A DNA stretch of 64,000 nucleotides from Escherichia coli 042 (GTDB taxonomy: Bacteria > Pseudomonadota > Gammaproteobacteria > Enterobacterales > Enterobacteriaceae), in NCBI RefSeq assembly GCF_000027125.1, contig NC_017626.1. One strand, given 5' to 3'. A model generated the notes under the pieces. That model saw only the letters and a list, made by a program, of their open reading frames with translations. It was not told where the DNA came from and ran no database searches. The stretch's first letter is position 1; every line of letters starts with the position of its first letter. Shown in pieces: positions 1 through 32,862 of the stretch. The position numbers and the translations under genes were made by a program.

Positions 1-1
1 G

Positions 2-1420
2 GAAGGAATTGAACTCAGACAGAGAGCAGATGCTTTTTCAAAACAATATCAGACCCGGGAGCAGCAGAGAGCTAGTGAACTTGCAAAACTGGAAAAGCTA
101 AAGAATCAGTATTCAAAGGAAGAATATAATAATCTTATCGCTCAAATAAATGAGCGTTATAAAGATCCAAAGCAACCAAAGGCGAAAGGTTATTCGGATG
201 ATGCTGCCCAACGAATGATTGATCATCTGAATCAACAGAATGCGTTACTAAGTTCACAAGCTGAATTGACCGTTAAATTAAGTTCCTCTGAACAGGAACT
301 GGTTAAGTGGCGTCAGCAGATTGCCGACCTGGAGTCACGACCGTCATCGAAATTAACCCAGGATCAGAAATCGCTTCTCTTACACCGGGAAGAAATAACC
401 GCGTTGATGGAGAAAAATGTTGCGATTGAAAAAAATAACAGGCTAATCAAAGAATCCGCCGAAATAGCCGCATGGCGTGATTCATTGCAGGCTTCGATTG
501 ATAATCGTCAGCAGGGGTATGATATTCAGATTGCTGGTTATGGGGTTGGCGATAAAAATCAGCAACGCCAGCAGGAATTACTGCGGATTGAACGTGAATA
601 TAACAATCAGCGTCTGCAACTTGAACGTGACTATGCAGATAAATCCCGTGGAATGTCAAATCATGTTTTTCAGGAGAAAATGCAGGCTCTGAATGATGCT
701 CTGGAGCGAGAAAAAGAAATTGTCAGCCAGAAAAACGAGCAGCTCGATATTCAGGCAGGAGACTGGATTAGTGGTGCCTCCCAGGGATTCAATAACTGGC
801 TGGATGACACTAAGGATATCGGTGCGCAAATAAAATCAACCACGACTCAGATGTTTGATGGGATGACCGATGCGCTAGGTGATTTTGTCACGACAGGCAA
901 GGCAAATTTTCGTTCTTTCGCTACTTCCGTGATTTCAGATCTTAGTCGAATTGCATTAAAGGCTTCAATTACTGGGATTTTCGACAGCATTAGTAACAGT
1001 TCTTCTGGGGGTATTTTAGGAACTATCGGGAGTGCTATTAGTAAATTTATTCCGAATGCAAAGGGCGGTGTTTATGAGTCTCCGTCATTGAGTACATATT
1101 CGAACGGTATTTATGACTCCCCGCAATTTTTTGCTTTTGCAAAAGGAGCTGGTGTTTTTGGTGAGGCTGGACCGGAAGCTATTATGCCATTAACGCGAAC
1201 TTCCGATGGTTCTCTTGGTGTCAGAGCTATTAATAGTAAAAGTGGTAATGGAGGCAGAGATATTACTTATGCCCCTGTATACCAAATCACTATTCAAAAT
1301 GACGGCCAGAATGGAGAGATTGGTCCTCAGGCAATAAAAGCACTTATGGGGATGGTTGATCAGCGGGTGCAGGGCGCTCTGTTAAATATGCGACGTGATG
1401 GAGGAATGTTAAGTGGCTAA
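2..1420 (+). CDS. phage tail tape measure protein, C-terminal portion (lambda H-like); 5' end lies upstream of the window
   Basis: Frame open from nt 2 to the stop at 1418-1420; Gly/Ser-rich C-terminal region typical of tape measure proteins; followed by M-L-K-I-J in lambda order. Confidence 0.7.
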   Translation, partial: EGIELRQRADAFSKQYQTREQQRASELAKLEKLKNQYSKEEYNNLIAQINERYKDPKQPKAKGYSDDAAQRMIDHLNQQNALLSSQAELTVKLSSSEQELVKWRQQIADLESRPSSKLTQDQKSLLLHREEITALMEKNVAIEKNNRLIKESAEIAAWRDSLQASIDNRQQGYDIQIAGYGVGDKNQQRQQELLRIEREYNNQRLQLERDYADKSRGMSNHVFQEKMQALNDALEREKEIVSQKNEQLDIQAGDWISGASQGFNNWLDDTKDIGAQIKSTTTQMFDGMTDALGDFVTTGKANFRSFATSVISDLSRIALKASITGIFDSISNSSSGGILGTIGSAISKFIPNAKGGVYESPSLSTYSNGIYDSPQFFAFAKGAGVFGEAGPEAIMPLTRTSDGSLGVRAINSKSGNGGRDITYAPVYQITIQNDGQNGEIGPQAIKALMGMVDQRVQGALLNMRRDGGMLSG

Positions 1421-1751
1421 TACGGAAGAATTTTACTGGTTACCAGAGGATGGAATGAAAACAGAAAATAAGCCATCGATAAAAACTGTAAGATTTGGCG
1501 ATGGTTATGAACAACGAAGCCCAAACGGACTTAATCATTCTCTGCGTGTTTTTACCTGTGATTTCAGGGTTGAGGCGAATGAACGTAATTCATTTGAACT
1601 GTTTCTGGCTCGGCATGGAGGCTATAAATCTTTTTTTTGGCGCCCGCCGGGTATTAACAGAAAAATCAGAGTGGTGTGTCGAACGTGGTCAGCGACAGAA
1701 CATATCACCTATACCGATTTTTCGTGTCAGTTTGACGAAGTGGTGATCTGA
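1413..1751 (+). CDS. minor tail protein M (lambda M-like)
   Basis: 112 aa; GTG start overlaps the tape measure stop; VRFGDGY-type motif and size as recalled for lambda M; position in tail module. Confidence 0.75.
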   Translation: MANTEEFYWLPEDGMKTENKPSIKTVRFGDGYEQRSPNGLNHSLRVFTCDFRVEANERNSFELFLARHGGYKSFFWRPPGINRKIRVVCRTWSATEHITYTDFSCQFDEVVI

Positions 1752-2449
1752 TGCAGGACATACGACAGGAAACACATCATGAGACGACACGCCTTACTCA
1801 GTCAGCCCAGGTGGTGCTCTGGGAAATCGATCTGACAGAGGTCGGTGGTGAACGTTATTTTTTCTGTAATGAGCAGAACGAAAAAGGTGAGCCGGTCACC
1901 TGGCAGGGGCGGCAGTATCAGGTATACCCTATTCAGGGGACGGGATTTGAACTGAACGGTAAGGGTAGTGCTACCCGTCCGACACTGACGGTCTCTAACC
2001 TGCACGGCATGGTCACCGGGATGGCGGAAGACCTGCAGAGTCTGGTCGGCGGAACGGTGGTCAGGCGTAAGGTTTACGCCCGTTTTCTGGATGCGGTGAA
2101 CTTCGTCAACGGAAACAGCGACGCCGATCCGGAGCAGGAGGTGATCAGCCGCTGGCGCATCGAGCAGTGCAGCGAACTGAGTGCGGTCAGTGCCTCCTTT
2201 GTGCTCTCCACACCGACGGAAACGGATGGTGCTGTTTTTCCGGGGCGCATCATGCTGGCCAACACCTGCACCTGGACCTATCGCGGTGATGAGTGCGGTT
2301 ATCATGGTCCGGCTGTCGCGGATGAATATGACCAGCCGACGTCCGATATCACGAAGGATAAATGCAGCAAATGCCTGAGCGGCTGTAAGTTTCGCAATAA
2401 CGTCGGCAACTTTGGCGGCTTCCTTTCCATTAACAAACTTTCGCAGTAA
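1751..2449 (+). CDS. minor tail protein L (lambda L-like)
   Basis: 232 aa, same length as lambda L; ATG overlaps the M stop (TGATG); Cys-rich C-terminus. Confidence 0.8.
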   Translation: MQDIRQETHHETTRLTQSAQVVLWEIDLTEVGGERYFFCNEQNEKGEPVTWQGRQYQVYPIQGTGFELNGKGSATRPTLTVSNLHGMVTGMAEDLQSLVGGTVVRRKVYARFLDAVNFVNGNSDADPEQEVISRWRIEQCSELSAVSASFVLSTPTETDGAVFPGRIMLANTCTWTYRGDECGYHGPAVADEYDQPTSDITKDKCSKCLSGCKFRNNVGNFGGFLSINKLSQ

Positions 2450-2453
2450 TCCC

Positions 2454-3197
2454 ATGACACAGACAGAATCAGCGATTCTGGCGCACGCCCGGCGATGTGC
2501 GCCAGCGGAGTCGTGCGGCTTCGTGGTGAGAACGCCGGAAGGGGAAAGATATTTTCCCTGCGTGAATATCTCCGGTGAGCCGGAGGCGTATTTCCGGATG
2601 TCGCCGGAGGACTGGCTGCGGGCAGAGATGCAGGGTGAGATTGTGGCGCTGGTCCACAGCCACCCCGGTGGTCTGCCCTGGCTGAGTGAGGCTGACAGGC
2701 GGCTGCAGGTGCAGAGCGATTTGCCTTGGTGGCTGGTCTGCCGGGGTGAGATTCATAAATTCCGCTGTGTGCCGCATCTTACCGGGCGGCGCTTTGAGCA
2801 CGGGGCGACGGACTGTTACACGCTGTTCCGGGATGCTTATCATCTGGCGGGGATTGAGATGCCGGACTTTCATCGTGAGGATGACTGGTGGTGTAACGGC
2901 CAGAATCTCTATCTGGATAATCTGGAGGCCACAGGGCTGTATCAGGTGCCGTTGTCAGCGGCGCAGCCGGGCGATGTGCTGCTGTGCTGTTTTGGTTCAT
3001 CGGTGCCGAATCATGCCGCCATTTACTGCGGCGACGGTGAGCTGTTGCACCATATTCCTGAACAACTGAGCAAACGAGAGAGGTATACCGACAAATGGCA
3101 GCGACGCACACACTCCCTCTGGCGTCACCGGGCATGGCACGCATCTGCCTTTACGGGGATTTACAACGATTTGGCCGCCGCATCGACCTTCGTGTAA
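2454..3197 (+). CDS. tail assembly protein K (MPN/JAB plus NlpC/P60-like)
   Basis: ATG 4 nt after the L stop; JAMM-type HSHPGG motif in the N-terminal half; lambda K family by position and motif. The longest frame begins at 2412. Confidence 0.75.
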   Translation: MTQTESAILAHARRCAPAESCGFVVRTPEGERYFPCVNISGEPEAYFRMSPEDWLRAEMQGEIVALVHSHPGGLPWLSEADRRLQVQSDLPWWLVCRGEIHKFRCVPHLTGRRFEHGATDCYTLFRDAYHLAGIEMPDFHREDDWWCNGQNLYLDNLEATGLYQVPLSAAQPGDVLLCCFGSSVPNHAAIYCGDGELLHHIPEQLSKRERYTDKWQRRTHSLWRHRAWHASAFTGIYNDLAAASTFV

Positions 3198-3742
3198 AAA
3201 CGGGGGCTGAAGCCATCCGGGCGTTGTCCACACAGCTCCCGGCGTTTCGTCAGAAACTGAATGAGGGCTGGTATCAGGTGCGCATTGCCGGGCGTGATGC
3301 AGGCGAAAATGAATTATCTGCCCGTCTTAATGAGTCGCTGGCAAATGGTGCCGTGATCCACATTGTGCCGCGTCTGGCGGGAGCTAAAAGTGGCGGTGTT
3401 TTTCAGGCAGTGCTGGGTGCGGCGCTGATTGCGGTGGCATGGTGGAACCCTGTGGGCTGGCTGGGTGCCGCGGCTGTATCGGGCATGTATGCGGCAGGGG
3501 CCAGTATGATCCTGGGTGGTGTGGCCCAGATGCTGGCACCGAAAGCCCGGACGCCCACAGCGACCAGCACGGATAACGGTAAGCAGAACACCTATTTCTC
3601 ATCACTGGATAACATGGTTGCCCAGGGCAATGTTCTGCCTGTTCTGTACGGTGAAATGCGCGTGGGGTCTCGTGTGGTTTCTCAGGAGATCAGCACGGCA
3701 GATGAAGGGGACGGTGGTCAGGTTGTGGTGATTGGCCGCTGA
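3095..3742 (+). CDS. tail assembly protein I (lambda I-like)
   Basis: 215 aa; overlaps the K 3' end; Gly/Ala-rich hydrophobic C-terminal half as in lambda I. Confidence 0.7.
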   Translation: MAATHTLPLASPGMARICLYGDLQRFGRRIDLRVKTGAEAIRALSTQLPAFRQKLNEGWYQVRIAGRDAGENELSARLNESLANGAVIHIVPRLAGAKSGGVFQAVLGAALIAVAWWNPVGWLGAAAVSGMYAAGASMILGGVAQMLAPKARTPTATSTDNGKQNTYFSSLDNMVAQGNVLPVLYGEMRVGSRVVSQEISTADEGDGGQVVVIGR

Positions 3743-3760
3743 TGCAAAATATTTCATGTG

Positions 3761-3790
3761 AAACCGCCTCCGGGCGGTTTTGTCGTTTAT
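3761..3790 (+). terminator. hairpin plus T-rich tract between I and J
   Basis: AAACCGCC / GGCGGTTT inverted repeat followed by TTTTGTCGTTTAT. Confidence 0.4.
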
Positions 3791-3802
3791 GGAGCATGAC
3801 GA

Positions 3803-6800
3803 ATGGGCAAAGGAAGCAGTAAGGGGCATATCCCGCGCGAAGCGAAGGACAACCTGAAGTCCACGCAGTTGCTGAGTGTGATCGATGCCATCAGTGAAGG
3901 GCCGGTTGAAGGTCCGGTGGATGGCTTAAAAAGCGTGCTGCTGAACAGTACGCCGGTGCTGGACAGTGAGGGGAATACCAATATCTCCGGCGTCACGGTG
4001 GTGTTCCGGGCAGGCGAGCAGGAGCAGTCACCGCCGGAGGGATTTGAATCCTCCGGTTCCGAGACGGTGCTGGGTACGGAAGTGAAATATGACACGCCGA
4101 TCACCCGCACCATTACGTCGGCAAACATCGACCGTCTGCGCTTTACCTTCGGTGTACAGGCACTGGTGGAAACCACCTCAAAGGGTGACAGGAATCCGTC
4201 GGAAGTCCGTCTGCTGGTTCAGATACAGCGTAACGGTGGCTGGGTGACGGAAAAAGACATCACCATTAAGGGCAAAACCACCTCGCAGTATCTGGCCTCG
4301 GTGGTGGTGGGTAACCTGCCGCCGCGCCCGTTTAATATCCGGATGCGCAGGATGACGCCGGACAGCACCACAGACCAGCTGCAGAACAAAACGCTCTGGT
4401 CGTCATACACCGAAATCATCGATGTGAAACAGTGCTACCCGAACACGGCACTGGTCGGCGTGCAGGTGGACTCGGAACAGTTCGGCAGCCAGCAGGTGAG
4501 CCGTAATTATCATCTTCGCGGGCGCATTCTGCAGGTGCCGTCGAACTATAACCCGCAGACGCGGCAATACAGCGGTATCTGGGACGGAACGTTTAAGCCA
4601 GCATACAGCAACAACATGGCCTGGTGTCTGTGGGATATGCTGACCCATCCGCGCTACGGCATGGGGAAGCGTCTCGGTGCGGCGGATGTGGACAAATGGG
4701 CGCTGTATGTCATCGGCCAGAATTGCGACCAGTCGGTGCCGGACGGCTTTGGCGGCACGGAGCCGCGCATCACCTGTAATGCGTACCTGACCACACAGCG
4801 CAAGGCGTGGGATGTGCTCAGTGATTTCTGCTCGGCGATGCGCTGTATGCCAGTATGGAACGGGCAGACGCTGACGTTCGTGCAGGACCGACCGTCGGAT
4901 AAGGTGTGGACCTATAACCGCAGTAATGTGGTGATGCCGGATGATGGCGCACCGTTCCGCTACAGCTTCAGCGCCCTGAAAGACCGCCATAATGCCGTTG
5001 AGGTGAACTGGATTGACCCGAACAACGGCTGGGAGACGGCGACAGAGCTTGTGGAGGATACGCAGGCCATTGCCCGTTACGGTCGTAACGTCACGAAGAT
5101 GGATGCTTTTGGCTGTACCAGCCGGGGGCAGGCGCACCGCGCCGGGCTGTGGCTGATTAAAACGGAATTGCTGGAAACGCAGACCGTGGACTTCAGCGTG
5201 GGTGCAGAAGGGCTTCGCCATGTACCGGGCGATGTCATTGAAATCTGCGATGATGACTATGCGGGTATCAGCACCGGCGGGCGCGTGCTGGCGGTGAACA
5301 GCCAGACGCGGACACTGACGCTCGACCGTGAAATCACGCTGCCATCCTCCGGCACCACGCTGATAAGCCTGGTTGACGGACAGGGGAATCCGGTCAGCGT
5401 GGAGGTCCAGTCCGTCACCGACGGCGTGAAGGTAAAAGTGAGCCGGGTTCCTGATGGCGTTGCCGAGTACAGCGTGTGGGGGCTGAAGCTGCCGACGCTG
5501 CGCCAGCGCCTGTTCCGCTGCGTGAGTATCCGTGAGAATGACGACGGCACGTATGCCATCACCGCTGTGCAGCATGTGCCGGAGAAAGAGGCCATCGTGG
5601 ATAACGGGGCGCACTTTGACGGCGACCAGAGCGGCACGGTGAATGGTGTCACGCCGCCAGCAGTGCAGCACCTGACCGCAGAAGTCACCGCAGACAGCGG
5701 GGAATACCAGGTGCTGGCGCGCTGGGATACGCCGAAGGTGGTGAAGGGTGTGAGCTTTATGCTTCGCCTGACCGTGGCAGCGGATGACGGCAGTGAGCGG
5801 CTGGTCAGCACGGCCCGGACGACGGAAACCACATACCGCTTCAGGCAGCTGGCTCTGGGAAATTACAGTCTGACAGTCCGGGCGGTAAATGCGTGGGGGC
5901 AGCAGGGCGATCCGGCGTCGGTATCGTTCCGGATTGCCGCACCGGCAGCACCATCGCGGATTGAGCTGACGCCGGGCTATTTTCAGATAACCGCCACGCC
6001 GCATCTTGCGGTTTATGATCCGACTGTACAGTTTGAGTTCTGGTTCTCGGAAAATCGGATTGCGGATATCAGGCAGGTTGAAACCAGCGCGCGTTATCTT
6101 GGCACGGCGCTGTACTGGATAGCCGCCAGTATCAATATCAAACCGGGCCATGATTATTATTTTTACGTTCGCAGTGTGAACACCGTCGGCAAATCGACAT
6201 TCGTGGAGGCTGTCGGTCGGGCGAGCGATGATGCGGAAGGTTACCTGGATTTTTTCAAAGGCCAGATAACCGAATCCCATCTCGGCAAGGAGCTGCTGGA
6301 AAAAGTCGAGCTGACGGAGGATAACGCCAGCAAACTGGAGGAGTTTTCGAAAGAGTGGAAGGACGCCAACGATAAATGGAATGCCATGTGGGGCGTCAAA
6401 ATTGAGCAGACCGAAGACGGCAGGCATTATGTCGCGGGGCTTGGCCTTAGTATGGAGGATACGGAGGAAGGCAAACTGAGCCAGTTCCTGGTTGCCGCTA
6501 ACCGTATCGCGTTTATTGACCCGGCAAACGGGAATGAAACGCCGATGTTTGTGGCGCAGGGCAACCAGATATTCATGAACGAAGTGTTCCTGAAGTATCT
6601 GACGGCTCCCACCATTACCAGTGGCGGCAATCCTCCGGTATTTTCCCTGACACCGGACGGGCGGCTGACGGCGAAAAATGCCGATATCAGCGGTAACGTG
6701 AATGCGAACTCCGGGACGCTCAATAATGTCACGATTAACGAGAACTGTCGGGTTCTGGGAAAACTGTCCGCGAACCAGATTGAAGGCGATCTCGTTAAAA

Positions 6801-7198
6801 CAGTGGGCAAAGCTTTCCCCCGTGACTCCCGTGCACCGGAACGGTGGCCATCAGGGACCATTACCGTCAGGGTTTATGACGATCAGTCGTTTGACCGGCA
6901 AATTGTTATTCCAGCGGTGGCTTTCAGCGGTGCCAGACATGAACGGGAGAATAGCGATACTTATTCGTCATGCCGCCTGATAGTGAAGAAAAACGGGGCT
7001 GAAATTTATAACCGAACGGCTCTGGATAATACTCTGATTTACACGGGTGTTATTGATATGCCTGCAGGCAGTGGCGTAATGACACTGGAGTTTTCGGTAT
7101 CAGCATGGTGGGTAAATGGCTGGTATCCCACAGCAAGTATCAGCGATTTGCTGGTTGTGGTGATGAAGAAAGCCACCGCAGGCATCAGTATCAGCTGA
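3803..7198 (+). CDS. host specificity protein J (central tail fibre), lambda J-like
   Basis: 1131 aa (lambda J is 1132 aa); C-terminal region resembles the recalled lambda J receptor-binding end ([21 protein letters not shown] motif). Confidence 0.85.
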
Positions 7199-7216
7199 AT
7201 TTTATAACCCCAATAC

Positions 7217-7241
7217 GGGCGTCAGAAATGACGCCTTTTTT
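7217..7241 (+). terminator. rho-independent terminator after J
   Basis: GGGCGTCA-GAAA-TGACGCC hairpin followed by TTTTTT. Confidence 0.5.
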
Positions 7242-7265
7242 ATTGCAGAAAAGCGAGAGGTAATT

Positions 7266-7865
7266 ATGCGTAAATTATGTGCTGTTATTCTGTCCGCAGT
7301 AGTCTGGCTGGTTGCCGCTGGTACGCCAGCGAGCGCAGCAGAGCATCAGTCCACACTAAGCGCCGGGTATCTTCAGGCCCATACTGATATGCCAGGCAGT
7401 GATGACCTGAAGGGCATTAACGTGAAATACCGTTATGAATTTACGGACACGCTGGGGCTGGTGACGTCATTCAGTTATGCCAATGCCAAAGATGAGCAAA
7501 AAACGCATTACAGCGATACCCGCTGGCATGAAGATTCAGTGCGTAACCGCTGGTTCAGCATGATGGCGGGGCCATCTGTACGCGTGAATGAATGGTTCAG
7601 TGCTTATGCGATGGCAGGTGTGGCTTACAGCCGTGTTTCGACGTTCTCCGGGGATTATCTCCGCGTAACTGACAACAAGGGGAAAACGCACGATGTGCTG
7701 ACCGGAAGTGATGACGATCGCCACAGCAACACGTCTCTGGCGTGGGGAGCTGGCGTGCAGTTTAACCCGACCGAATCCGTGGCCATTGATATTGCTTATG
7801 AAGGCTCCGGCAGTGGCGACTGGCGCACTGACGGTTTCATCGTGGGTGTCGGTTATAAGTTCTGA
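7266..7865 (+). CDS. lom: Lom/Ail/PagC-family outer membrane beta-barrel protein (lambda lom-like moron)
   Basis: 199 aa; signal peptide ending ASA; C-terminal ...GVGYKF aromatic terminus typical of OMPs; position between J and stf as in lambda. Confidence 0.8.
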   Translation: MRKLCAVILSAVVWLVAAGTPASAAEHQSTLSAGYLQAHTDMPGSDDLKGINVKYRYEFTDTLGLVTSFSYANAKDEQKTHYSDTRWHEDSVRNRWFSMMAGPSVRVNEWFSAYAMAGVAYSRVSTFSGDYLRVTDNKGKTHDVLTGSDDDRHSNTSLAWGAGVQFNPTESVAIDIAYEGSGSGDWRTDGFIVGVGYKF

Positions 7866-7892
7866 TTAGCCAGGTAACACAGTGTTATGACA

Positions 7893-7918
7893 GCCCGCCG
7901 GTTCAGGCGGGCTTTTTT
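7893..7918 (+). terminator. rho-independent terminator after lom
   Basis: GCCCGCCG-GTTCA-GGCGGGC hairpin followed by TTTTTT. Confidence 0.5.
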
Positions 7919-7923
7919 GTGGA

Positions 7924-10305
7924 GTGGATATGGCAGCAGTAAAAATCTCAGGTGTGCTGAAAGATGGTGCGGGAAAACCAATACAGAACTGCACTATTCA
8001 ACTGAAGGCAAAGCGTAACAGCACCACGGTACTGGTGAACACGGTGGCCTCTGAAAATCCGGATGAAGCCGGGCGTTACAGCATGGATGTTGAGTATGGT
8101 CAGTACAGCGTCACCCTGCTGGTTGAAGGTTTTCCGCCTTCACATGCCGGGACCATTACCGTCTATGAAGGTTCCAGACCAGGTACGCTGAATGATTTTC
8201 TCGGTGCCATGACGGAAGATGATGTCATGCCGGAGGCATTGCGTCGTTTTGAGGAAATGGTGGAAGAAGCGGCACGCAACGCTGAAGCCGCCTCTCAGAG
8301 CGCAGCGGCGGCAAAGAAATCCGAAACTGCAGCGGCATCATCGAAGAACGCGGCGAAAACCTCAGAAACGAATGCAGCTAACAGCGCACAGGCGGCAGCG
8401 GCCTCGCAGACTGCATCGGCAAACTCCGCAACAGCAGCTAAAAAATCAGAAACCAACGCGAAAAATAGCGAGACAGCCGCAAAGACGAGCGAAACCAACG
8501 CAAAGTCCAGCCAGACGGCAGCGAAGACCAGCGAAACGAATGCCAAAGCCAGTGAAACTGCGGCAAAAAACAGCCAGGTTGCAGCAGCCCAAAGCGAGAG
8601 CGCGGCAGCCGGTTCTGCGACTTCAGCAGCTGGATCAGCAACTGCTACGGCTAACAGCCAGAAAGCTGCGAAGACGAGTGAAACTAACGCAAAGTCCAGC
8701 CAGACGGCAGCGAAGACCAGCGAAACGAATGCCAAAGCCAGTGAAACTGCGGCGAAAAGCAGTCAGGATGCAGCGGCTCAAAGCGAGAGTGCCGCAGCCA
8801 GTTCTGCAAGCGCGGCGGCTGCTTCTGCCACTGCATCAGCTAACAGTCAAAAAGCAGCAAAAACCAGTGAAACCAACGCAAAGGTGAGCGAAACAGCGGC
8901 AGCGAACTCAGCGAAAGCATCGGCAGCAAGCCAGACGGCAGCTAAAGCAAGCGAAGATGCAGCCAGAGAGTACGCAAGCCAGGCTGCGGAGCCGTATAAA
9001 TATGTCTTACAGCCGCTGCCTGATGTGTGGATACCATTTAACGATTCGCTGGATATGATTACGGGCTTTTCGCCGTCATATAAAAAAATTGTTATTGGTG
9101 ACGATGAAATAACGATGCCTGGCGACAAGATTGTTAAGTTTAAACGTGCATCGAAAGCAACCTATATTAACAAATCTGGTGTGCTGACAGAGGCTGCCAT
9201 TGACGAGCCACGATTTGAACGTGATGGCCTGCTTATTGAGGGGCAAAGAACAAACTACATGCTCAATTCGGAAAGCCCTGCCAGTTGGGGGCGATCTTCA
9301 AATATGGATGTGCCCGAAACAGGGACGGATAATTTTGGTTTTACCTATGGAAAGTTTGTCTGCAACGATTCTCTGATTGGGCAAACCTCAGCCATTAATA
9401 TGGCATCAATTGCTGCAACAAAGTCAGTTGATGTCTCAGGCGATAATAAACACGTGACAACCTCATGTCGTTTTAAAACAGAACTGCAGGTAAGGTTGCG
9501 TATCCGGTTTGATAAATATGACGGTAGCGCAACAACTTTTCTTGGTGATGCGTATATTGATACACAAACGCTTGAAATTAATATGACAGGCGGTGCTGCC
9601 TCAAGGATTACAGCGAGAGTCAGAAAGGACGAAGCTACCGGATGGATTTTTGCAGAGGCAACAATTCAGGCAATTGATGGGGAGCTAAAAATAGGCTCTC
9701 AGATACAGTATTCTCCTAAGCAGAGCGGGGCAACCGTATCTGGTGACTATATTTATCTGGCCACCCCACAAGTAGAAGATGGGCCTTGTGTATCATCTTT
9801 TATTATATCAGGAGCGACGGCGGCGACCCGCGCAAGCGATATAGTTACAGTTCCAATTAAGAATAATCTTTATAATCTTCCTTTTACGGTTCTTTGTGAG
9901 GTACATAAGAACTGGTATAAAACGCCAAATGCAGCGCCACGTGTTTTTGATACCGGCGGTCATCAAACCGGAGCGGCTATTATTCTTGGCTTCGGTCGTT
10001 CAACAGATTACGACGGATTTCCTTATTGCGATATTGGAGGAGCTAACAGACGGGTAAACGAAAACGCATCGCTTGAAAAAATGGTTATGGGGATGCGTGT
10101 AAAGTCAGAGCAGTCTACGTGCTCAGTAAGTAACGGGCATATATCCAGCGAAACAAAAACCACATGGTCCTGTATTCAGAACACCGCAATTATCCGTATT
10201 GGAGGCCAGACTACAGCCGGGTTACGTCATTTATTTGGTCATGTCAGGAATTTCAGAATATGGCACAAGGCATTGACTGATGCTCAGGTGGGGGAGTCAA
10301 TCTAA
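7924..10305 (+). CDS. side tail fibre protein (Stf-like) with collagen-like Ala/Ser/Thr repeat shaft and divergent C-terminal domain
   Basis: N-terminal ~100 aa match the recalled lambda Stf N-terminus (MA.VKISGVLKDG.GKP.QNCTIQLKA...); KTSETNAK repeat shaft; C-terminal half (from ~nt 9000) visibly lower GC. Confidence 0.75.
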   Translation: MDMAAVKISGVLKDGAGKPIQNCTIQLKAKRNSTTVLVNTVASENPDEAGRYSMDVEYGQYSVTLLVEGFPPSHAGTITVYEGSRPGTLNDFLGAMTEDDVMPEALRRFEEMVEEAARNAEAASQSAAAAKKSETAAASSKNAAKTSETNAANSAQAAAASQTASANSATAAKKSETNAKNSETAAKTSETNAKSSQTAAKTSETNAKASETAAKNSQVAAAQSESAAAGSATSAAGSATATANSQKAAKTSETNAKSSQTAAKTSETNAKASETAAKSSQDAAAQSESAAASSASAAAASATASANSQKAAKTSETNAKVSETAAANSAKASAASQTAAKASEDAAREYASQAAEPYKYVLQPLPDVWIPFNDSLDMITGFSPSYKKIVIGDDEITMPGDKIVKFKRASKATYINKSGVLTEAAIDEPRFERDGLLIEGQRTNYMLNSESPASWGRSSNMDVPETGTDNFGFTYGKFVCNDSLIGQTSAINMASIAATKSVDVSGDNKHVTTSCRFKTELQVRLRIRFDKYDGSATTFLGDAYIDTQTLEINMTGGAASRITARVRKDEATGWIFAEATIQAIDGELKIGSQIQYSPKQSGATVSGDYIYLATPQVEDGPCVSSFIISGATAATRASDIVTVPIKNNLYNLPFTVLCEVHKNWYKTPNAAPRVFDTGGHQTGAAIILGFGRSTDYDGFPYCDIGGANRRVNENASLEKMVMGMRVKSEQSTCSVSNGHISSETKTTWSCIQNTAIIRIGGQTTAGLRHLFGHVRNFRIWHKALTDAQVGESI
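8461..8900 (+). repeat. in-frame 189-bp tandem direct repeat (~2.3 copies) inside the side tail fibre gene
   Basis: CAAAGTCCAGCCAGACGGCAGCGAAGACCAGCGAAACGAATGCCAAAGCCAGTGAAACTGCGGC occurs at 8501 and 8690; unit starts near 8461, 8650, 8839. Confidence 0.75.
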
Positions 10306-10586
10306 TGAAAGATTTAACACTCAAATTTGCCGACAGGGCCGACTTTTCGGCCTTTATGGATAGCACTGGCTATTATGATGACGAGTCGATGCAGGATGAT
10401 ATTCTTATTGACGTGATAGGTAACGTGTACAAAGAAACCGGAGAACTGACTGAAGATGGCGAACCGGTATGTGTTAAGGAAGACGGATATTTTGTAAACG
10501 TGCGCATCATTAATGATTCGCAAATATCGTCATTATTCGATGAATACGTGGTTGCTGTTGAGCATCAACTTCGTGGCTGGATGTGA
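10305..10586 (+). CDS. hypothetical protein, translationally coupled to the tail fibre gene (possible fibre assembly/chaperone factor)
   Basis: 93 aa acidic protein; ATG overlaps the stf stop (TAATG); no recognised motif. Confidence 0.4.
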   Translation: MKDLTLKFADRADFSAFMDSTGYYDDESMQDDILIDVIGNVYKETGELTEDGEPVCVKEDGYFVNVRIINDSQISSLFDEYVVAVEHQLRGWM

Positions 10587-10595
10587 GGAAGAAAA

Positions 10596-11636
10596 ATGGC
10601 TACATCGACAGTAATTCCTGATGACATCAAAACGCTAAAATCCGACGTTAGCAAATTAAAAAACGATCAAGGAAGCTACGCAACAAAATTATATGTAGAC
10701 AGCAAAGATGAAATCGTTGGTGACTGGTCTGCTTCATGGTATCAGCAGGTATTGCCAACTAGCGGAGCTATATTTGGGAGAAAACTCCGCTCAACTCACA
10801 GGACGGCAGGTGTTGAGGATGCGTATTGCGAACTATACCTCAAAAAATGGATAGACAGTCCAGGTAACGCAATGGCGCGCCTTAACCTGAACGATAACGG
10901 GACAAACATTTGCTGGGACTTTACCAACCTTTATGGCGGTACGATGATTTTTCCCGGTGACAGCGGATACCTCAAAATGGGTAACTGCCTTATGTCATAC
11001 AGCAAGCGTGGAAGTAACGCGCTTATTAAATTTGATTACACCGACACATTACAGATCAAATATGCCAATCATGGGTCAACCATGACATTAAACACACAGG
11101 GAACCGCTTATGCTGGTGTTACTGCTCAATTGTGGGGCAACACCAGCCGTCCTGTTGTTTATGAAGTCGGTGTTGATGGTGGCGCTTATATGTTCTATGC
11201 GCAGAAAAATACCGATAACACCTATATGTTAAGCGTTAATGGTGCATGTCATGCCACCGCATTTAACCAGCATTCCGACCGGGATCTGAAAGACAACATT
11301 CAGGTGATCGATAATGCAACCGACCGCATCCGTAAAATGAACGGCTATACATACACGCTTAAAGAAAACGGTATGCCCTATGCTGGTGTCATTGCACAGG
11401 AAGCTCTGGAAGCAATCCCAGAAGTTGTAGGTTCCGCAATGAAATATCAGGACGGTGCGAGCGGATCGGAAGGTGAAGAAGGTGAACGTTATTACACAGT
11501 AGATTATTCTGGTGTTACTGGCTTGCTTGTTCAGGTAGCCAGAGAGTCAGACGACAGAATAACAGCACTGGAAGAAGAAAACGCAGAATTAAGACAAAGA
11601 TTATCTGCAATTGAGGCGGCGCTTGCGTCTAAATAA
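10596..11636 (+). CDS. tail fibre/spike protein with C-terminal intramolecular chaperone (peptidase S74-like) domain
   Basis: 346 aa; GAGGAAG SD upstream; C-terminal HSDRDLKDNI motif matching the S-D-x-R-x-K-x-N-I autocleavage signature, followed by a coiled-coil tail. Confidence 0.6.
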   Translation: MATSTVIPDDIKTLKSDVSKLKNDQGSYATKLYVDSKDEIVGDWSASWYQQVLPTSGAIFGRKLRSTHRTAGVEDAYCELYLKKWIDSPGNAMARLNLNDNGTNICWDFTNLYGGTMIFPGDSGYLKMGNCLMSYSKRGSNALIKFDYTDTLQIKYANHGSTMTLNTQGTAYAGVTAQLWGNTSRPVVYEVGVDGGAYMFYAQKNTDNTYMLSVNGACHATAFNQHSDRDLKDNIQVIDNATDRIRKMNGYTYTLKENGMPYAGVIAQEALEAIPEVVGSAMKYQDGASGSEGEEGERYYTVDYSGVTGLLVQVARESDDRITALEEENAELRQRLSAIEAALASK

Positions 11637-11642
11637 TATTAA

Positions 11643-11665
11643 GGGGCCGAGCGCCCCGTTTTATT
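11643..11665 (+). terminator. hairpin plus T tract after the fibre gene
   Basis: GGGGCCGAGCGCCCCG followed by TTTTATT. Confidence 0.4.
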
Positions 11666-11678
11666 GGGTAGGATGAAA

Positions 11679-11972
11679 ATGGATATAACACCTTTCCTTC
11701 ATGCGCTTTGTGCTGTGGCTGCGCAGCTACTGATTGGTCTTTTTACCGGGAACTGGGCTTACGGGGCGATAGCCGGTTGTACGTTCTTCATTGCGCGTGA
11801 ACACACCCAGGCAGAATATCGCTGGATCGAAATGTTCGGGCATGGCAAGCGAATGAATATGCCGTGGTGGGGCGGTTTTGATCCGCGTGCATGGGATGTG
11901 GCAAGCCTGATGGATTTTGCTGTGCCGGTGGTGGCGTGTCTGCTGGTCTGGCTGTTGGTTAATCGTGGGTGA
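11679..11972 (+). CDS. small hydrophobic (probably membrane) protein, unknown function; prophage moron position
   Basis: 97 aa from the ATG with AGGA 6 nt upstream (longest frame from 11664); two to three hydrophobic segments; no known motif. Confidence 0.4.
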   Translation: MDITPFLHALCAVAAQLLIGLFTGNWAYGAIAGCTFFIAREHTQAEYRWIEMFGHGKRMNMPWWGGFDPRAWDVASLMDFAVPVVACLLVWLLVNRG

Positions 11973-12323
11973 AAAAAGGTGAGCTGTATATGCAACGGAG
12001 GAAGAAACCCCGTTGCTGGAAGCCTGGAAAAAGTATCGGATGCTGCTGAACCGTGTTGATACATCAACTGCACCTGATATTGAGTGGCCTACGAACCCTG
12101 TCAGGGAGTAATCATTGGGATTATGCCGCAGAAACGTTGTATGCAATAACGTTCTGCGGTTGGCTGATGCACTTTCGAGAGTGCATGTATTGAATTATTT
12201 CCAGCTATTATCGATTTTACGTATTTTTTGCATGAGAGAATTTGTACCTCCTCCCAACAACGACCTTCCATGACTTTCCGGACTTCTGTGGGCCAGCGGA
12301 CGATGCTGCCCTCGGATGTTGTG

Positions 12324-13181
12324 CTAATTGGGTGATGACAAATCCTGTGTATGGGTGTTTCCCTTTGTGCGTGCGTTGATGCTGGTAACGGTGAACGTCA
12401 TGATGAACACAACCGCGAATAAGACGACAATCGTCGGAGCTGGTGCACTGTCGATAAAAAAGGACAACCAGACACCAGTCATTGACACTATTACCGATAT
12501 GCCAATCGCCAGTAGGAGCGCAATATGAAAGCGTTGTGTCAGGAGTACCGCAATGGCGCCAGGCGCAATGAGCAGAGAAATGGAGAGAATGATACCTACC
12601 GCTTTCAGCGTCGCCACAATGGTCAGAGAGACCATGCACAGCAGCCCATAATGCAGACATCTCGTATGCAAACCGCTTACCTGCGCCTGTTGATAATCAA
12701 AGCTGAACAGCAAAAAATCCCGCCATTTTACGCTAATAACAAGTGTAACCAACCCGGCAATAATCACCGTCTGGATTATATCGCCGATGGTTACCCCGAG
12801 CATGTCGCCGAAAAGAATATGGTCAAGATGTACGTCTGGTTTGACTGCAATATACAAGATCAGACCTGCGGCAAACATGCCAGAAAAAACAATCCCCATC
12901 ACTGTATCTTGCTTGATTCGGCTGTTGTCTTTCAGGTATCCCGTCGCCACCGCGCAGAATACTCCGGCGACGAATGCCCCTGTAGCCAGAGGTAACCCCA
13001 GAATCCAGGCAAGCACGATGCCAGGAAAAACCGCATGACTCATCGCGTCACCCATCAGTGCCCAACCTTTCAGGACCAGAAAGACCGACAGCAGCGCACA
13101 GGGTATGGAAACTACCAGTGAAATCAGCAGTGCGTGACTCATAAAGGTGAACTGCAGTGGCTCCAGTAATAATGCCATCAT
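12324..13181 (-). CDS. sitD: Mn/Fe ABC transporter permease SitD
   Basis: 285 aa polytopic membrane protein; second of two paralogous permeases; 4-nt overlap with sitC. Confidence 0.85.
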   Translation of the reverse strand: MMALLLEPLQFTFMSHALLISLVVSIPCALLSVFLVLKGWALMGDAMSHAVFPGIVLAWILGLPLATGAFVAGVFCAVATGYLKDNSRIKQDTVMGIVFSGMFAAGLILYIAVKPDVHLDHILFGDMLGVTIGDIIQTVIIAGLVTLVISVKWRDFLLFSFDYQQAQVSGLHTRCLHYGLLCMVSLTIVATLKAVGIILSISLLIAPGAIAVLLTQRFHIALLLAIGISVIVSMTGVWLSFFIDSAPAPTIVVLFAVVFIMTFTVTSINARTKGNTHTQDLSSPN

Positions 13182-14035
13182 GAGCGATCCTCCAGCGCTT
13201 TATGCGCACGCCGACGATTTGCCAAAAGCCCATGGGTGGGCGCAAATACAAATGCTAAAAGAAACAGCAGTGTCTGCGCCACCACGATGATTCCACCTGT
13301 CGCGCCGTCCAGAAAGTAACTGACCCACGCGCCGAGGAAACTGGTTACACTGCCAATAGTTACAGCAATTATGAGCAGGCGGGGAAAATGATCGGTTAAC
13401 AACCATGCTGTTGCACCGGGAGTCACCACCAGACAGATCACCAGAAAGGCACCAACCGTTTGCAGCGCCGCAACGGTCGAAACCGACAGCAGGGTGAAGA
13501 AGAGGATTTTTAATCTGCCCGGATGCAATCCAATAGCACGAGCGTGATTCTCGTCGAAAAAGGTCACCATAAGATCTTTCCATTTGAAAAAAAGCACGAT
13601 GATCGAGAGAATGCCAATGATAGTGAGTTGCAGGATATCCGCCGGATCGATTGCCAGAATATTGCCCAGGACGATGGTCTGAATGTTCACGGATGTCGGG
13701 TTCAATGACACCATAAACAGCCCCAGGCCAAAAAAGGAGGAGAAGATCAGGCCGATGATGGCATCTTCTTTTAAGCGAGTGCGTTGGTTAAGAAACAGCA
13801 TGCTGCCCGCTGCCAGTCCGCCGGAAAAGAAGGCTCCCAGAGAAAACGGAAGCCCCAGCATATATGCCCCCGCAACACCCGGGACAATAGAGTGCGACAG
13901 CGCATCGCCAATCAGCGACCAGCCTTTTAGCATCAGATAGCATGACAGGAAAGCGCAGAGACCGCCGACCATCGCCGAGACCCACATCGCATTGAGCATA
14001 TATTCATAGCTGAAGGGTTCCAGTAGCACGTTCAT
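13178..14035 (-). CDS. sitC: Mn/Fe ABC transporter permease SitC
   Basis: 285 aa, ABC-3 type permease; overlaps sitB and sitD ends. Confidence 0.85.
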
Positions 14036-14859
14036 CTTGCTTCCCCCTGCACCGCTGACGGTCGATGTGCCACAAAAGGGTGTTCATCGTCAGTAATAAT
14101 GCTTTCTTCCGAGCCGTTAAGTGTGACATGGCGCAGTACGCCGCTAAAAGCCAGCTCCAGGTTCTCGGCTGTAAAAGTGGTGTCTGTCGGCCCGCTTGCC
14201 AGGACGGTGCCTTTGACCATGACCGTATAATCGCAAAATGTCGTGACTGAGCCGAGATTGTGCGTTGAGACAAGCATCGTCTTGCCTTCCGCGCGTAACT
14301 CCCTCAACAGGCTGATGATTTTCGCTTCGGTTTTCACATCAACGCCGGTAAAAGGTTCATCCAGCAGGATCACATCACCCTGCTGTGCAATCGCTCTCGC
14401 CAGAAAGACGCGTTTCTTTTGTCCACCGGAAAGCTCGCCGATTTGTCGATGGCGAAAATCCACCATATCGACACGTTCCAGCGCATCGGTGACAATCTGA
14501 CGATCCCTCTTTTTGGCTATACGCAACATACCCATGTGCCCATAGCGGCCCATCATCACCACATCTTCCACTAGTACAGGAAATGACCAGTCAACCTCTT
14601 CTGACTGAGGGACGTAGGCAACCAGGTTTTTCTGTAGCGCCTGTCGCGTGGGAATACCCAGAACAGATATCTTTCCGCTGGTCAGACGGACAAATCCCAT
14701 AATCGCTTTAAACAACGTCGATTTTCCGGAACCGTTTACCCCAACCAGAGCGGCAATAGATCCACTTGGTACTGTGAAGGATGCATCGCGCAGTGCTGTG
14801 TGCCCGTTACGCCAGGTGACAGTAACATCATTAACGACAATGCCCGCAGATTGCATCAT
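14032..14859 (-). CDS. sitB: Mn/Fe ABC transporter ATP-binding protein SitB
   Basis: 275 aa; Walker [13 protein letters not shown] signature LSGGQKKR, Walker B ILLDEP. Confidence 0.9.
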
Positions 14860-15773
14860 TATTTCTCCCTTTTCCCGGCTTTAATTCCCTGTACCAGCGT
14901 ACTGGTAGTAACCTTCAGAAGGTCGATATACGTAGGTACCGGGCCGTTTTCTGTGCTCAGGGAATCGACATAGAGTACACCGCCGTAGTGCGCGCCGGTT
15001 TCACGCGCAACCTGACGCGCTGGTTTATCGGAAATCGTACTCTCGCTAAAGACTGCCGGGATATGATTTTTCTTCACCATATCAACAACCTTACGTACCT
15101 GCTGCGGCGTGCCTTGTTGATCGGCATTAATCGGCCACAGATAAAGCTCTTTTAGCCCCAAATCGCGTGCGAGATAAGAAAAAGCCCCTTCACTGGTGAC
15201 CATCCATCGCTGATTCTCAGGGAGTTCAGCAATCTGCTTACGCAGGGGGGCAAGGGTTTGGGTAATCTTGGCTTTATAAGTATCGGCATTACGTTGGTAG
15301 GTTTGTGCATTTGCCGGATCGTATTTTATCAACGCATCACGAATATTATCGACATAAATCAGAGCATTATCTGGCGACATCCAGGCATGGGGGTTAGGTT
15401 TGCCCTCATAGGGTCCTTCGGTGATCCCTACTGGCGTCACACCCGAAGAGACAATTACTTCTGGAACCCCATTGAGATGTTGGTAAAAGCGTTGGAACCA
15501 CAATTCCAGATTCATACCATTGGCGAGAATCAGTTGTGCCCCCTGCGCACGTTTAATATCTCCAGGGGTAGGCTGATACTCATGAATTTCTGCACCAGGC
15601 TTGGTTATGGATGAGACTTCTGCAGCATCTCCAGCCACGTTTTTGGCCATATCCGCGATGATGGTAAATGTTGTAATGACCTTGAATTTTTCAGTTGCAC
15701 TTGCCTGAAATGCGATCGAGCAGGTGAGGGCGAGGCACCCCAAGAGCATGGTTACTTTTTTTATTGAGTGCAT
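14859..15773 (-). CDS. sitA: periplasmic Mn/Fe-binding protein SitA (cluster 9 / TroA-like)
   Basis: 304 aa with signal peptide; first gene of a four-gene co-directional operon. Confidence 0.85.
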
Positions 15774-15804
15774 AATTTAGTACCTATAGTGAGCAAAATT
15801 AGAA

Positions 15805-15828
15805 AAAACATAGCAACAGCTATGTTTT
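15805..15828 (-). promoter_or_regulatory. MntR-type operator upstream of sitA
   Basis: Palindrome AAAACATAGC-AACA-GCTATGTTTT, 32-55 bp upstream of the sitA start; matches the recalled E. coli MntR box (AAACATAGC...GCTATGTTT). Confidence 0.6.
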
Positions 15829-15849
15829 ATAGCATAAGCCATGCAAAAT

Positions 15850-15868
15850 GAAAATGATTATCATTAGC
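15850..15868 (-). promoter_or_regulatory. Fur box-like site upstream of sitA
   Basis: GAAAATGATTATCATTAGC resembles the Fur consensus GATAATGATAATCATTATC, ~80-95 bp upstream of sitA. Confidence 0.5.
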
Positions 15869-15981
15869 GGTTGTGGGCCCAACACAGGGATTAGGTTGTT
15901 TCCTGCTGGCGATGTGGTATTGAGGAAAAAATTAGGGCAGCTATTAGGCTTTGAAATGACTTTATGAGGAGAATTGTTGAT

Positions 15982-16032
15982 GGCAAAAATGGGGCAAAGC
16001 GCTGCAAAAGGGGCAAAAAAGGGGCAAAAAAA
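15982..16032 (+). repeat. short tandem GGGGCAAA(A) repeats (4-5 copies)
   Basis: GGCAAAAA, GGGGCAAAG, GGGGCAAAAAA, GGGGCAAAAAAA in tandem; overlap a 22-codon Lys-rich mini-ORF (15980-16048) with a GAGGA SD 9 nt upstream. Confidence 0.4.
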
Positions 16033-16331
16033 GAGTGGGTTATCGTAGCTTATTGTTGTCGCTGATGATGTTTAACACATTGAAAAATAAGTAAAATACT
16101 TATGAGTCAGAGAGTTGTGATTTTTGCCCTTACTTGTTCAGATTGTATTGTTCTTTCTTACTAATTTCTTGATTTTGCGACATTTAAAAGCGACTCAATT
16201 CGTTATATGGCATCAGAAGAGTATGCGTCATGCCGGAAAGCCCAGCATAAGAAATCTGATATAAAAACTGTGGCGTGTATGGTACGGATTAGAGGGGAAA
16301 ATGTCAGCACATTTGCGAAATGAATCAAAAA

Positions 16332-16351
16332 GCCCGCAGCAATGTGCGGGC
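16332..16351 (-). terminator. hairpin immediately downstream of uspF
   Basis: GCCCGCA-CATTGC-TGCGGGC on the minus strand followed by TTTTTGATT. Confidence 0.5.
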
Positions 16352-16358
16352 GTTAGTG

Positions 16359-16874
<516 letters not shown>

Positions 16875-16933: not shown

Positions 16934-18067
16934 TTAGAACTGATAAACCAGACCTAAAGCGACAATATCATCGGTAGAGATGCCGTTGGCAGCGTAGAAG
17001 CTGTCATCTTCATCCAACAGGTTGATTTTATAGTCAACATAGGTGGACATGTTTTTATTGAAATAGTAAGTCGCGCCAACATCGGCGTATTTAACCAGAT
17101 CTTTATCATCAACACCTGCCGGGTTGTCTGCACCACCGGCAGCGTGCAGGTCACGGCCTTTAGACATCAGGAAAGAGACTGCCGGACGCAGACCAAAATC
17201 AAACTGGTACTGTGCAGTAACTTCAAAGTTCTGGGTTTTGTTTGCAACAGCATAATCGCTGTCGCCAAACGGGGTCATATTACGCGTTTCTGAATACATG
17301 GTTGCCAGGTAAATATTGTTAGCATCGTATTTTAGCCCAGCAGTCCACGCGTCTGCTTTATCACCACCCGCCGCAGTATGGTTAACCTGGTCATTGGTGC
17401 GGTCAGAAGAGGTGTATGCCGCACCAGCGCTAAAGCCCATGCCTAAATCATATGTTGTGGAAAGACCCCAGCCGTCACCGTTTTCATGGCGAACATCACG
17501 TCCGTTGTTGGTGCCTTCCTGACCATTACTGGCACCTTCGTTGTTACCTTGATACTGCACCGCGAAGTTCAGACCATTTACCAGACCGAAGAAATCAGTA
17601 TTACGATAAGTCGCGACGCCATTGGCACGACCAGTCATAAAGTTGTCTGCATTGGTATAAGAGTCACCGCCAAATTCAGGCAGCATATCGGTCCAGCCTT
17701 CGATGTCGTACATTACGCCATAATTACGTCCGTAATCGAAAGAACCGTAATCTGCAAATTTCAATCCGGCAAATGCCAGACGGGTCCATGACTGGTTTTT
17801 TGAGGATTCAGTGTTGTTTGCCTGAATATTGTATTCCCATTGACCGTAGCCAGTGAGTTGATCGTTAATTTGCGTTTCGCCTTTAAAACCCAGACGCGCA
17901 TAGCTCTGGTCGCCATCTTTCGCTGAATTATCAGAAAAATAATGCAGGCCATCAACTTTGCCATACAGATCTAATTTGTTGCCGTCTTTATTATAAACTT
18001 CGGCTGCATGTGCAGCACCTGCGGCGAGCAGGGCAGGAATTAAAAGTGCCAGTACTTTGCTTTTCAT
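16934..18067 (-). CDS. ompN: outer membrane porin OmpN
   Basis: 377 aa general porin (OmpC/F family); signal peptide; C-terminal ...LVYQF. Confidence 0.85.
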
Positions 18068-18294
18068 TGAATAAATCCTTTAGTTATTTTATTTGCCTTT
18101 TATCCCCATTTCGGGGAGTGAAAACATCCTAAAGGAGATGTTCAGTTAGCCGATAAATATCATTTGTTACGCCTTAAGTAAAACCTTAATCAAATAATTC
18201 TTCTGAAATGATAATAAGTCTGGTGAATGTATTGGAGATAATACATACAAAATAAAAATTATACTTTTAATTTGCTATACGTTATTCTGCGCGG

Positions 18295-18404: not shown

Positions 18405-18432
18405 AGAATTGGATAATTCTTATCCAGAGCAT

Positions 18433-27784: not shown

Positions 27785-27787
27785 TTA

Positions 27788-32853: not shown

Positions 32854-32862
32854 TGTTTTTCA
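32854..32862. repeat. IS1 target-site duplication, left copy (TGTTTTTCA)
   Basis: Identical 9-mer directly flanks both IS1 ends. Confidence 0.9.

Follow-up and report, generated by a model that had tools for sequence, protein, structure and literature searches.

We found that positions 1-16159 of the window (the whole 64,000-nucleotide stretch that was analyzed) almost certainly form the right arm, with the late genes, of a lambdoid prophage of the Rac family that interrupts the 5′ end of ttcA and carries the sitABCD operon as cargo. The preliminary description had seen a tail block in lambda order (H′ to lom, stf), followed by cargo and then by uspF and ompN, a gene order borne out by Pfam; the right boundary, which it had left open, can now be placed at an attR core at 16134-16159. 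According to the model that we favor, integrase recombination at a 26-bp core common to the phage attP and to ttcA would have left a hybrid attR, consisting of the phage arm (15981-16133), the core and the displaced start of ttcA (16133-16183), with uspF next to it.

Alignment to K-12 Rac and to the ttcA region identified each of these parts: a P arm with 98% identity, a core with 25 of 26 positions conserved, and a displaced 5′ end of ttcA. The P arm (15981-16133, plus strand) is the counterpart of the last 152 bp of annotated K-12 Rac, and the sequence from 15981 to 16500, which includes this arm, aligns with K-12 from position 1434806 onward at 98.3% identity. The core, or crossover region (TTGTTCAGATTGTATTGTTCTTTCTT; plus strand), differs from the sequence common to K-12 attL and attR by one base (G to A at position 9), the A being the allele found in empty attB sites, and it has a single match in the whole window. 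Overlapping the core on the minus strand is ttcC′ (16133-16183; 17 codons, MSQNQEISKKEQYNLNK), the equivalent of the K-12 pseudogene ttcC (b4638), at which the core chromosome starts; its translation is the ancestral TtcA N-terminus, in agreement with Liu et al. 2015 (PMC4632033), and it is continuous with intact ttcA in UCPROB-001. In that strain, which has an empty site with ttcA beside uspF, the match to the window has 99.2% identity and begins at exactly 16134, as it does in Rac-free genomes generally, in which ttcA directly adjoins uspF. Thus, a hybrid site within the 5′ end of ttcA, whose phage-side arm has its homolog in K-12 Rac, separates the phage from the first core gene to its right, uspF (16359-16793, minus strand; Pfam Usp 4e-31; annotated as uspF in K-12 and KK19-02), which is followed by ompN (16934-18067, minus strand).

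Three copies of GGGGCAAA are clustered within 38 bp of the P arm (15991-16028), and two further copies are present in the K-12 P′ arm. The count over the whole window is not significant (5 found versus 3.3 expected), but the clustering and the P′ copies suggest that these repeats are candidate arm-type sites for the integrase. The preliminary description could identify no tRNA at the boundary, and ARAGORN detected no tRNA or tmRNA gene anywhere in the window; nor is there, at a boundary, a tRNA gene with the 3′-end direct repeat that marks a tRNA-targeted island or prophage. The lack of a tRNA is explained by the integration of Rac into a protein-coding gene. Rfam matches in the window were confined to MicC, RydC and sok.

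Two intervals had been proposed to contain attR, 11973-12323 and 15774-16358; the second does, whereas the first holds a tfaR remnant and no core. We considered that the prophage might nevertheless end at 11973-12323, such that sitABCD would be a separate island (“PAI sit”) between the prophage attR and uspF. This idea draws on a switch of both composition and strand at about 12100, on the truncated tfa gene at the same place, and on a review (PMC7545054, citing Fisher et al. 2009) in which the sit locus is described as an unstable island that occupies several sites in the chromosome. In contrast, a search of 11973-12323 that tolerated 3 mismatches found no att core, sit has the Rac phage-side arm and the core on its right, the junction in Rac-free genomes is at 16134 rather than at about 12000, and cultivated phages have sit at the same position after the tail fibers. 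Moreover, a free-standing island would have sit beyond the phage att sites, flanked by chromosome or IS elements, which is not the arrangement here. No IS elements or flanking repeats were found around sit, and searches for transposon-like or att-like direct or inverted repeats around the cassette returned only short, chance-level matches. The position of attR refutes a prophage end in this interval with a free-standing sit island, a reading to which we give next to no credence. Since attR is distal to sit, sitABCD is cargo within the prophage, located between the tail-fiber genes and attR.

What the interval 11973-12323 does contain is a 40-codon 3′ remnant of tfaR (11992-12111, plus strand), which is 90% identical to the 3′ end of K-12 tfaR and whose translation agrees with the TfaR C-terminus. 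It is the sole occupant, and no core gene separates the tail block from sit; the preliminary description had named such genes as evidence that would have told against it. An adjacent stretch of about 135 bp (12142-12277) is 85% similar to a sequence in phage ev207 that is on the opposite side of sit. We conclude that this interval is an internal phage junction, a recombination scar, and not an att site.

The operon itself, sitDCBA (12324-15773, minus strand), encodes an Mn2+/Fe2+ ABC importer and is annotated as sitABCD in relatives. All four genes, sitD (12324-13181), sitC (13178-14035), sitB (14032-14859) and sitA (14859-15773), are on the minus strand, and the Pfam matches make up a four-gene SitABCD system with a ZnuA-type binding protein (ZnuA 2e-86), an ATPase (ABC_tran 9e-31) and two permeases (ABC-3 8e-83 and 2e-76). 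Upstream of sitA are an MntR-box palindrome (AACATAGCAACAGCTATGTT; 15807-15826) and a predicted Fur box (15850-15868; 17 of 19 positions matching GATAATGATAATCATTATC), each the sole such site in the window, with 0 expected; phage-borne sit has been reported to have a Fur box in its upstream region (PMC6969025). The sitABCD genes would be transcribed from a promoter of their own, in the direction opposite to the late operon, and this promoter, with its predicted MntR and Fur boxes, would put sit under the control of host metal status, independently of phage induction. By its location within the att sites, its opposite strand, its own predicted regulatory boxes and the different cargo that K-12 has in the same slot, sit fits the description of a classic moron, a phage-borne fitness gene. 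Expression of sit in a lysogen has been reported for phage Perceval, and sit is probably expressed from this lysogen as well.

Upstream of the scar, positions 1-11972 hold an intact tail block on the plus strand in lambda order (H C-terminus, M, L, K, I, J, lom and side tail fibers). From H to stf, each gene of this lambda-type module has a diagnostic Pfam domain in the proper order, with tfa reduced to the 40-codon remnant. The block begins with the C-terminal 472 codons of a gpH-like tape measure protein (1-1420; Pfam Tape_meas_lam_C 5e-26, TMP_4 6e-25; annotated as tape measure in KK19-02); this gene is cut by the window edge and its N-terminal part lies beyond it. Next are minor tail proteins M (1413-1751; Phage_min_tail 1e-30) and L (1751-2449; Phage_tail_L 5e-99), the tail tip protein K with JAB and NlpC/P60 domains (2454-3197; Prok-JAB 3e-14, NLPC_P60 7e-13) and the tail assembly protein I (3194-3742; Lambda_tail_I 2e-15). 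The tip attachment or host specificity protein J (3803-7198; 1131 aa) has six GpJ-related Pfam domains (E-values of 1e-35 to 1e-43), among them a receptor-binding domain at the C-terminus. It is followed by lom, encoding an Ail/Lom outer-membrane protein (7266-7865; Ail_Lom 2e-127; 94% identity to the K-12 lomR fragments), and by the side tail fiber gene stf (7924-10305; phage_tail_N 7e-67; phrog_1419), the 5′ end of which is 91% identical to K-12 stfR and which contains internal tandem 189-bp repeats at 8467-8883. The last three genes encode a small phage protein (10305-10586; phrog_1361, PHROGs 7e-46), a distal tail-fiber protein with a C-terminal intramolecular chaperone domain (10596-11636; Peptidase_S74 5e-14; phrog_4563 3e-220) and a second small phage protein (11664-11972; phrog_1443, PHROGs 7e-59). 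The phrog_1443 gene is a conserved left neighbor of sit in lambdoid phages and is co-linear with sit in ev207.

For K-12, the preliminary description placed the right end of the defective Rac prophage next to uspF, and the RefSeq annotation agrees with that placement (Rac 1411899..1434958, ttcC′ 1434958..1435008, uspF 1435185..). K-12 Rac (b1345-b1375) and the window share the integration site, the core, the attR arm, ttcC′ and the right neighbor uspF, as well as homologous lomR, the 5′ end of stfR and the 3′ end of tfaR (90-94%). In contrast, the head genes and the whole stretch from the middle of the tape measure gene to lom have been deleted from K-12 Rac, which also has an IS5 in lomR, whereas the window has H-M-L-K-I-J-lom intact; the H-J part has no K-12 counterpart because it was deleted there. 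The distal fiber module also differs, as does the cargo slot, which holds sitABCD here and pinR-ynaE-ynaM in K-12. In terms of the model, K-12 Rac would have lost its head and most of its tail genes while this copy kept the uninterrupted block through stf, and the region between the tail-fiber genes and attR would be a variable slot for alternative genes. Of the two possibilities raised earlier for the K-12 Rac site, a lambdoid prophage that is different or one that is less decayed, the anatomy of attR and the left arm of the relative KK19-02 support the second. The window also illustrates K-12 Rac before decay. The same att logic applies to Sp10 and CP-933R of E. coli O157:H7, which are integrated in ttcA (PMC4632033); in O157 genomes the match to the window starts at 15981, with an identity of about 91%, but those sampled (rows H50 and H104 of the comparison) have no sit at this junction.

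We also considered that an unrelated lambdoid phage shares the K-12 Rac neighborhood, for instance in tandem with or replacing a Rac remnant, so that the attR arm would be the sole survivor of Rac. Indeed, matches to K-12 Rac in the window are limited to lom and the 5′ part of stf (7508-8282), the tfaR remnant and the attR arm; from L to stf (1740-11700), identity to the cultivated non-Rac lambdoid phages 2G7b and Tritos reaches 96-98%; and the sit module is common to lambda-type phages with other integrases. The closest complete genome, KK19-02, argues against this explanation. Over window 1-32862 it is co-linear, with 98.2% identity, and in it a single whole prophage spans the distance from ttcA to this attR and uspF, with intR and xisR beside ttcA, in the order ttcA-intR-xisR-rcbA-ralR-recT-recE-...-trkG-terminase-capsid-tail-sitABCD-uspF. 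The left arm of this prophage is 99.1% identical to K-12 Rac, and its Rac-specific trkG, ynaK-like, ydaY and ynaA sequences have 98-99.9% identity to K-12. Moreover, lambdoid mosaicism accounts for the shared tail-tip block without a second element, and an unrelated phage therefore seems to us very improbable. In parts of M-L-K-I-J the window has mosaic-divergent patches, only 86-96% identical to KK19-02; judged by sequence comparison, the tail block of the Rac-family prophage is a mosaic, not simply an undeleted K-12 Rac.

The sit module is also found in cultivated phages, namely Jouyvirus ev207, 1H12, the Lambda_ev series, PhiR63_2 and Perceval of LF82, and in published work sitABCD was present on 70% of the lambda-type phages of E. 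coli strains from the infant gut. Over window 11670-15969 the module of these phages is about 97.5% identical, with the phrog_1443 gene and the predicted Fur and MntR boxes, and it has the same position, after the tail fibers and before att/int. In contrast to the window, these phages use another integrase and att site, their head genes are of the lambda type, and they do not have window 12049-12303. Their homology stops at 15969, about 12 bp short of the Rac arm.

Of 5,426 complete E. coli genomes, 494 (about 9%) have an uninterrupted junction of sitA, attR and uspF. Rac::sit prophages occur in strains such as KK19-02 and ST38 isolates, and a published description of EAEC 042 includes 042p3 (ROD21), a lambdoid prophage, about 50 kb long, that occupies the Sp10/Rac position and has sitABCD “at the tail end.” The arrangement has thus already been described and the finding is an ordinary one, although a combined-term search found no literature on sitABCD together with the Rac prophage. 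Its significance beyond a tidy annotation is slight, phage transfer of sit having been published. It does show that virulence-associated sitABCD at this locus is phage cargo and not a separate island.

Finally, we asked how far this element may still be mobile. The left end (attL, intR, xisR and early genes, which in Rac include recET, kilR, sieB and racR) lies beyond the window, and relatives are the basis for judging whether this copy is complete and able to excise. A grounded Rac derivative with a deleted or inactivated left arm, in which sit would be fixed in the chromosome as cargo that the phage does not move, is possible but doubtful. This reading fits with the location of the left arm outside the window, with the defectiveness of K-12 Rac and many relatives, and with the phage-collection genomes, among which we found none with the Rac attP beside sit; the sole “phage” record with the Rac attR-sit arrangement is a mis-delimited prophage. 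Against it, the tail ORFs in the window are all full length, with lengths that agree with the KK19-02 annotation, KK19-02 has the full gene set, and 042p3 was judged to possess all genes for a functional phage. Furthermore, in the pAPEC-O2-ColV record, sitDCBA runs without a break into a complete Rac attP, made up of P arm, core and P′ arm, and the last 43 bp of intR, a junction that can arise only by prior excision or circularization. This is a single old record, with a 100-N gap and vector-like sequence immediately past the junction, and no sit-attP was found on plasmids other than pAPEC-O2-ColV. Capture by the plasmid and mis-assembly of a co-purified excised phage circle explain the record equally well, and under either one an excised Rac::sit circle existed at some time. 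We suggest, only tentatively, that Rac::sit is still mobile and excision-competent and is spreading sitABCD, and that at least one ColV-plasmid copy of sit was captured from its circle; the copy in the window may likewise be able to excise.

With attR fixed to the base, this locus should be useful for delimiting prophages. At least one public “phage genome,” ON032529.1, overshoots the boundary into uspF-ompN-nifJ.

Gene calls from an ORF map of the window and from Pfam and PHROGs scans bore out the order given in the preliminary description, in which a lambda-like tail block is followed by cargo and then by uspF and ompN. The start of the window cuts into a tape measure gene, leaving its last 472 codons (to 1420, +), and the same strand continues with M (1413-1751), L (1751-2449), K (2454-3197), I (3194-3742), J (3803-7198), lom (7266-7865), a side tail fibre gene (7924-10305), a small phage ORF (10305-10586), a second fibre gene encoding an S74 chaperone domain (10596-11636) and another small phage ORF (11664-11972). 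These are followed by a 40-codon 3' remnant of tfaR (11992-12111), sitDCBA (12324-15773, -), uspF (16359-16793), ompN (16934-18067), MicC (18292-18412) and then nifJ/ydbK; there are no core genes between the tail module and sit, and no tRNA was found in the window. All ORFs of the tail block are open, with lengths from M onward equal to those annotated in KK19-02, the closest complete genome.

Within the tail genes, a strong A-over-T skew (AT skew 0.56 at 8501-9000) arises because the side tail fibre gene holds 2.2 copies of a 189-bp repeat, made of 42-bp (14-codon) subrepeats, at 8467-8883. Long antisense ORFs also lie inside J (4403-6427, -, 674 aa) and L (1802-2455, -, 217 aa), in tail genes of 57-63% G+C; these are most likely stop-poor antisense frames rather than genes.

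We located the right boundary of the prophage by aligning the window with K-12 attR and attL and both KK19-02 att sites. In BLAST comparisons, K-12 homology restarts at 15981, corresponding to K-12 1434806, and thereby takes in the final 152 bp of Rac as annotated (right end 1434958). The alignment yielded a 26-bp sequence common to attL and attR, TTGTTCAGGTTGTATTGTTCTTTCTT, whose window copy, with one substitution, occupies 16134-16159; it was the sole match in the 64 kb with up to three mismatches tolerated. The core overlaps the 3' part of ttcC' (16133-16183, -), the displaced original ttcA start (translation MSQNQEISKKEQYNLNK), with the remaining ttcC' to its right. Moreover, in Rac-free genomes such as UCPROB-001, where ttcA abuts uspF, similarity to the window starts exactly at 16134, which independently confirms the boundary. 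These att features agree with published work on Rac excision, in which attL and attR match imperfectly and four N-terminal TtcA residues are altered upon excision (PMC4632033); XisR binding to an attR fragment was also reported (PMC4632033). Thus, of the two intervals initially proposed for attR, 15774-16358 contains the site, while 11973-12323 is an internal recombination scar. The hybrid attR itself records integration in ttcA, with attL outside the window.

The phage arm (15981-16133) carries three GGGGCAAA repeats inside 38 bp, and the K-12 int-proximal arm carries two more; we infer that these are candidate integrase arm-type sites. We also noted that 16142, core position 9, is A in the window and in the empty attB sites (UCPROB-001), and G in K-12 and KK19-02 attL and attR and in a plasmid attP. 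The A is consistent with either strand exchange to the left of position 9 or a simple polymorphism.

The best complete-genome match, KK19-02 (97.5% over the first 20 kb), is co-linear with window 1-32862 at 98.2%. Its element spans ttcA to uspF, running through intR, xisR, rcbA, ralR, recT, recE, racC, kilR and sieB to an immunity and replication region, lysis cassette, trkG, terminase, portal and capsid, and then the tail block, sitABCD and attR. K-12 matches its left 13.6 kb at 99.1% identity, and trkG, ynaK, ydaY and ynaA at 98-99.9%; K-12 Rac is therefore a deletion derivative of a KK19-02-type phage. The suggestion of a different or less-decayed lambdoid prophage in this region therefore holds in its second form: by these comparisons the window prophage is a much less decayed Rac member. 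It is also mosaic: the cultivated lambdoid phages 2G7b and Tritos share the L-to-fibre block (1740-11700) at 96-98% identity, and M-L-K-I-J includes patches at just 86-96% identity to KK19-02.

Since sit lies left of attR, sitABCD is inside the prophage, in the slot that pinR-ynaE-ynaM takes in K-12 Rac, and its transcription runs opposite to that of the late genes. The region before sitA has a perfect MntR-type palindrome (15807-15826) as well as a Fur box (15850-15868, 17/19); neither motif occurs elsewhere in the window, and chance alone would give 0 of each. Cultivated lambdoid phages with other integrases (such as ev207, 1H12, the Lambda_ev series, PhiR63_2 and Perceval) carry a sit module 97.5% identical to that of the window (~11670-15969), likewise placed after the fibre genes and before att. 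Its homology stops at 15969, and Rac-arm homology begins at ~15981; no repeats were found flanking the cassette. Its spread would be explained most simply by exchange among lambdoid phages, with recombination occurring in the fibre genes alongside. About 135 bp left of sitD (12142-12277) are 85% similar to ev207 sequence right of the sit promoter (24026-24157 of that record, L006), and thus the two phage types have this sequence on opposite sides of sit.

Of 5,426 complete E. coli genomes, 494 have an unbroken sitA-Rac arm-attR-uspF junction (15650-16400); the whole 20-kb arrangement is covered to at least 80% in 137 genomes. In infant-gut E. coli strains, 70% of lambda-type temperate phages carried sitABCD, always with a Fur box (Mathieu et al., PMC6969025), and the LF82 prophage Perceval carries sit, which is listed among the prophage morons detected in LF82 transcriptomes (PMC9928086). 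Given these reports and this prevalence, the preliminary description correctly recognised an arrangement that is both known and common.

We found one plasmid with a related junction. pAPEC-O2-ColV (NC_007675.1; L005 4001-7932) matches window 12317-16176 continuously, and continues not into ttcC' but into 144 bp (100% identical to K-12) made up of the int-proximal Rac arm and the final 43 bp of intR. Here sit adjoins a complete Rac attP (P arm with a 31-bp deletion, core, P' arm), an excision product, implying that this copy came from an excised circular Rac::sit. However, attP is directly followed by a run of 100 Ns and a polylinker string resembling pGEM (GAATTCACTAGTGATT), and pAPEC-O2-ColV is the sole carrier of the sit-attP junction in PLSDB. 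There are two readings: the plasmid took up sit from a circular Rac::sit genome, or a co-purified circle of excised phage DNA was mis-assembled. In typical ColV plasmids, sit homology extends only a few bases past the beginning of the Rac arm and is followed by a diverged arm-like stretch and then IS1, which weakly suggests the same origin. That Rac::sit is still mobile and seeded a plasmid copy seems to us less likely than not.

ON032529.1 ("Salmonella phage SPF_0923"), deposited as a complete phage genome, is a Rac::sit prophage fragment with misplaced limits: it opens near trkG and, beyond attR, takes in chromosomal uspF, ompN and part of nifJ. A full stfR-tfaR precedes sit in this record, probably the arrangement before the fibre-module swap seen in the window.

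In the downstream core region, an IS1 copy absent from KK19-02 (32863-33630, with InsA/InsB ORFs and terminal inverted repeats) lies inside ynbB, flanked by a 9-bp target duplication, TGTTTTTCA (32854-32862 and 33631-33639). Divergence from the otherwise near-identical KK19-02 peaks locally at 18001-19500, across the ompN-micC-nifJ intergenic region (92% identity in 18001-18500; 96-97% in the nifJ 3' part), which resembles a patch of recombination within core sequence. At ~27550-27900, judging by co-linearity with KK19-02 (L001 42548-42907), only the fragments of paaX and of an HTH gene present in that genome would remain between ydbL and paaY, where K-12 has a feaR-tynA-paaZ-paaK block; from the continuous alignment, this block appears to have been deleted in this lineage. 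Rfam matches to RydC (48107-48170) and the sok antitoxin RNA of a hok/sok-type locus (48731-48882, -) are apparently normal parts of the E. coli core genome.
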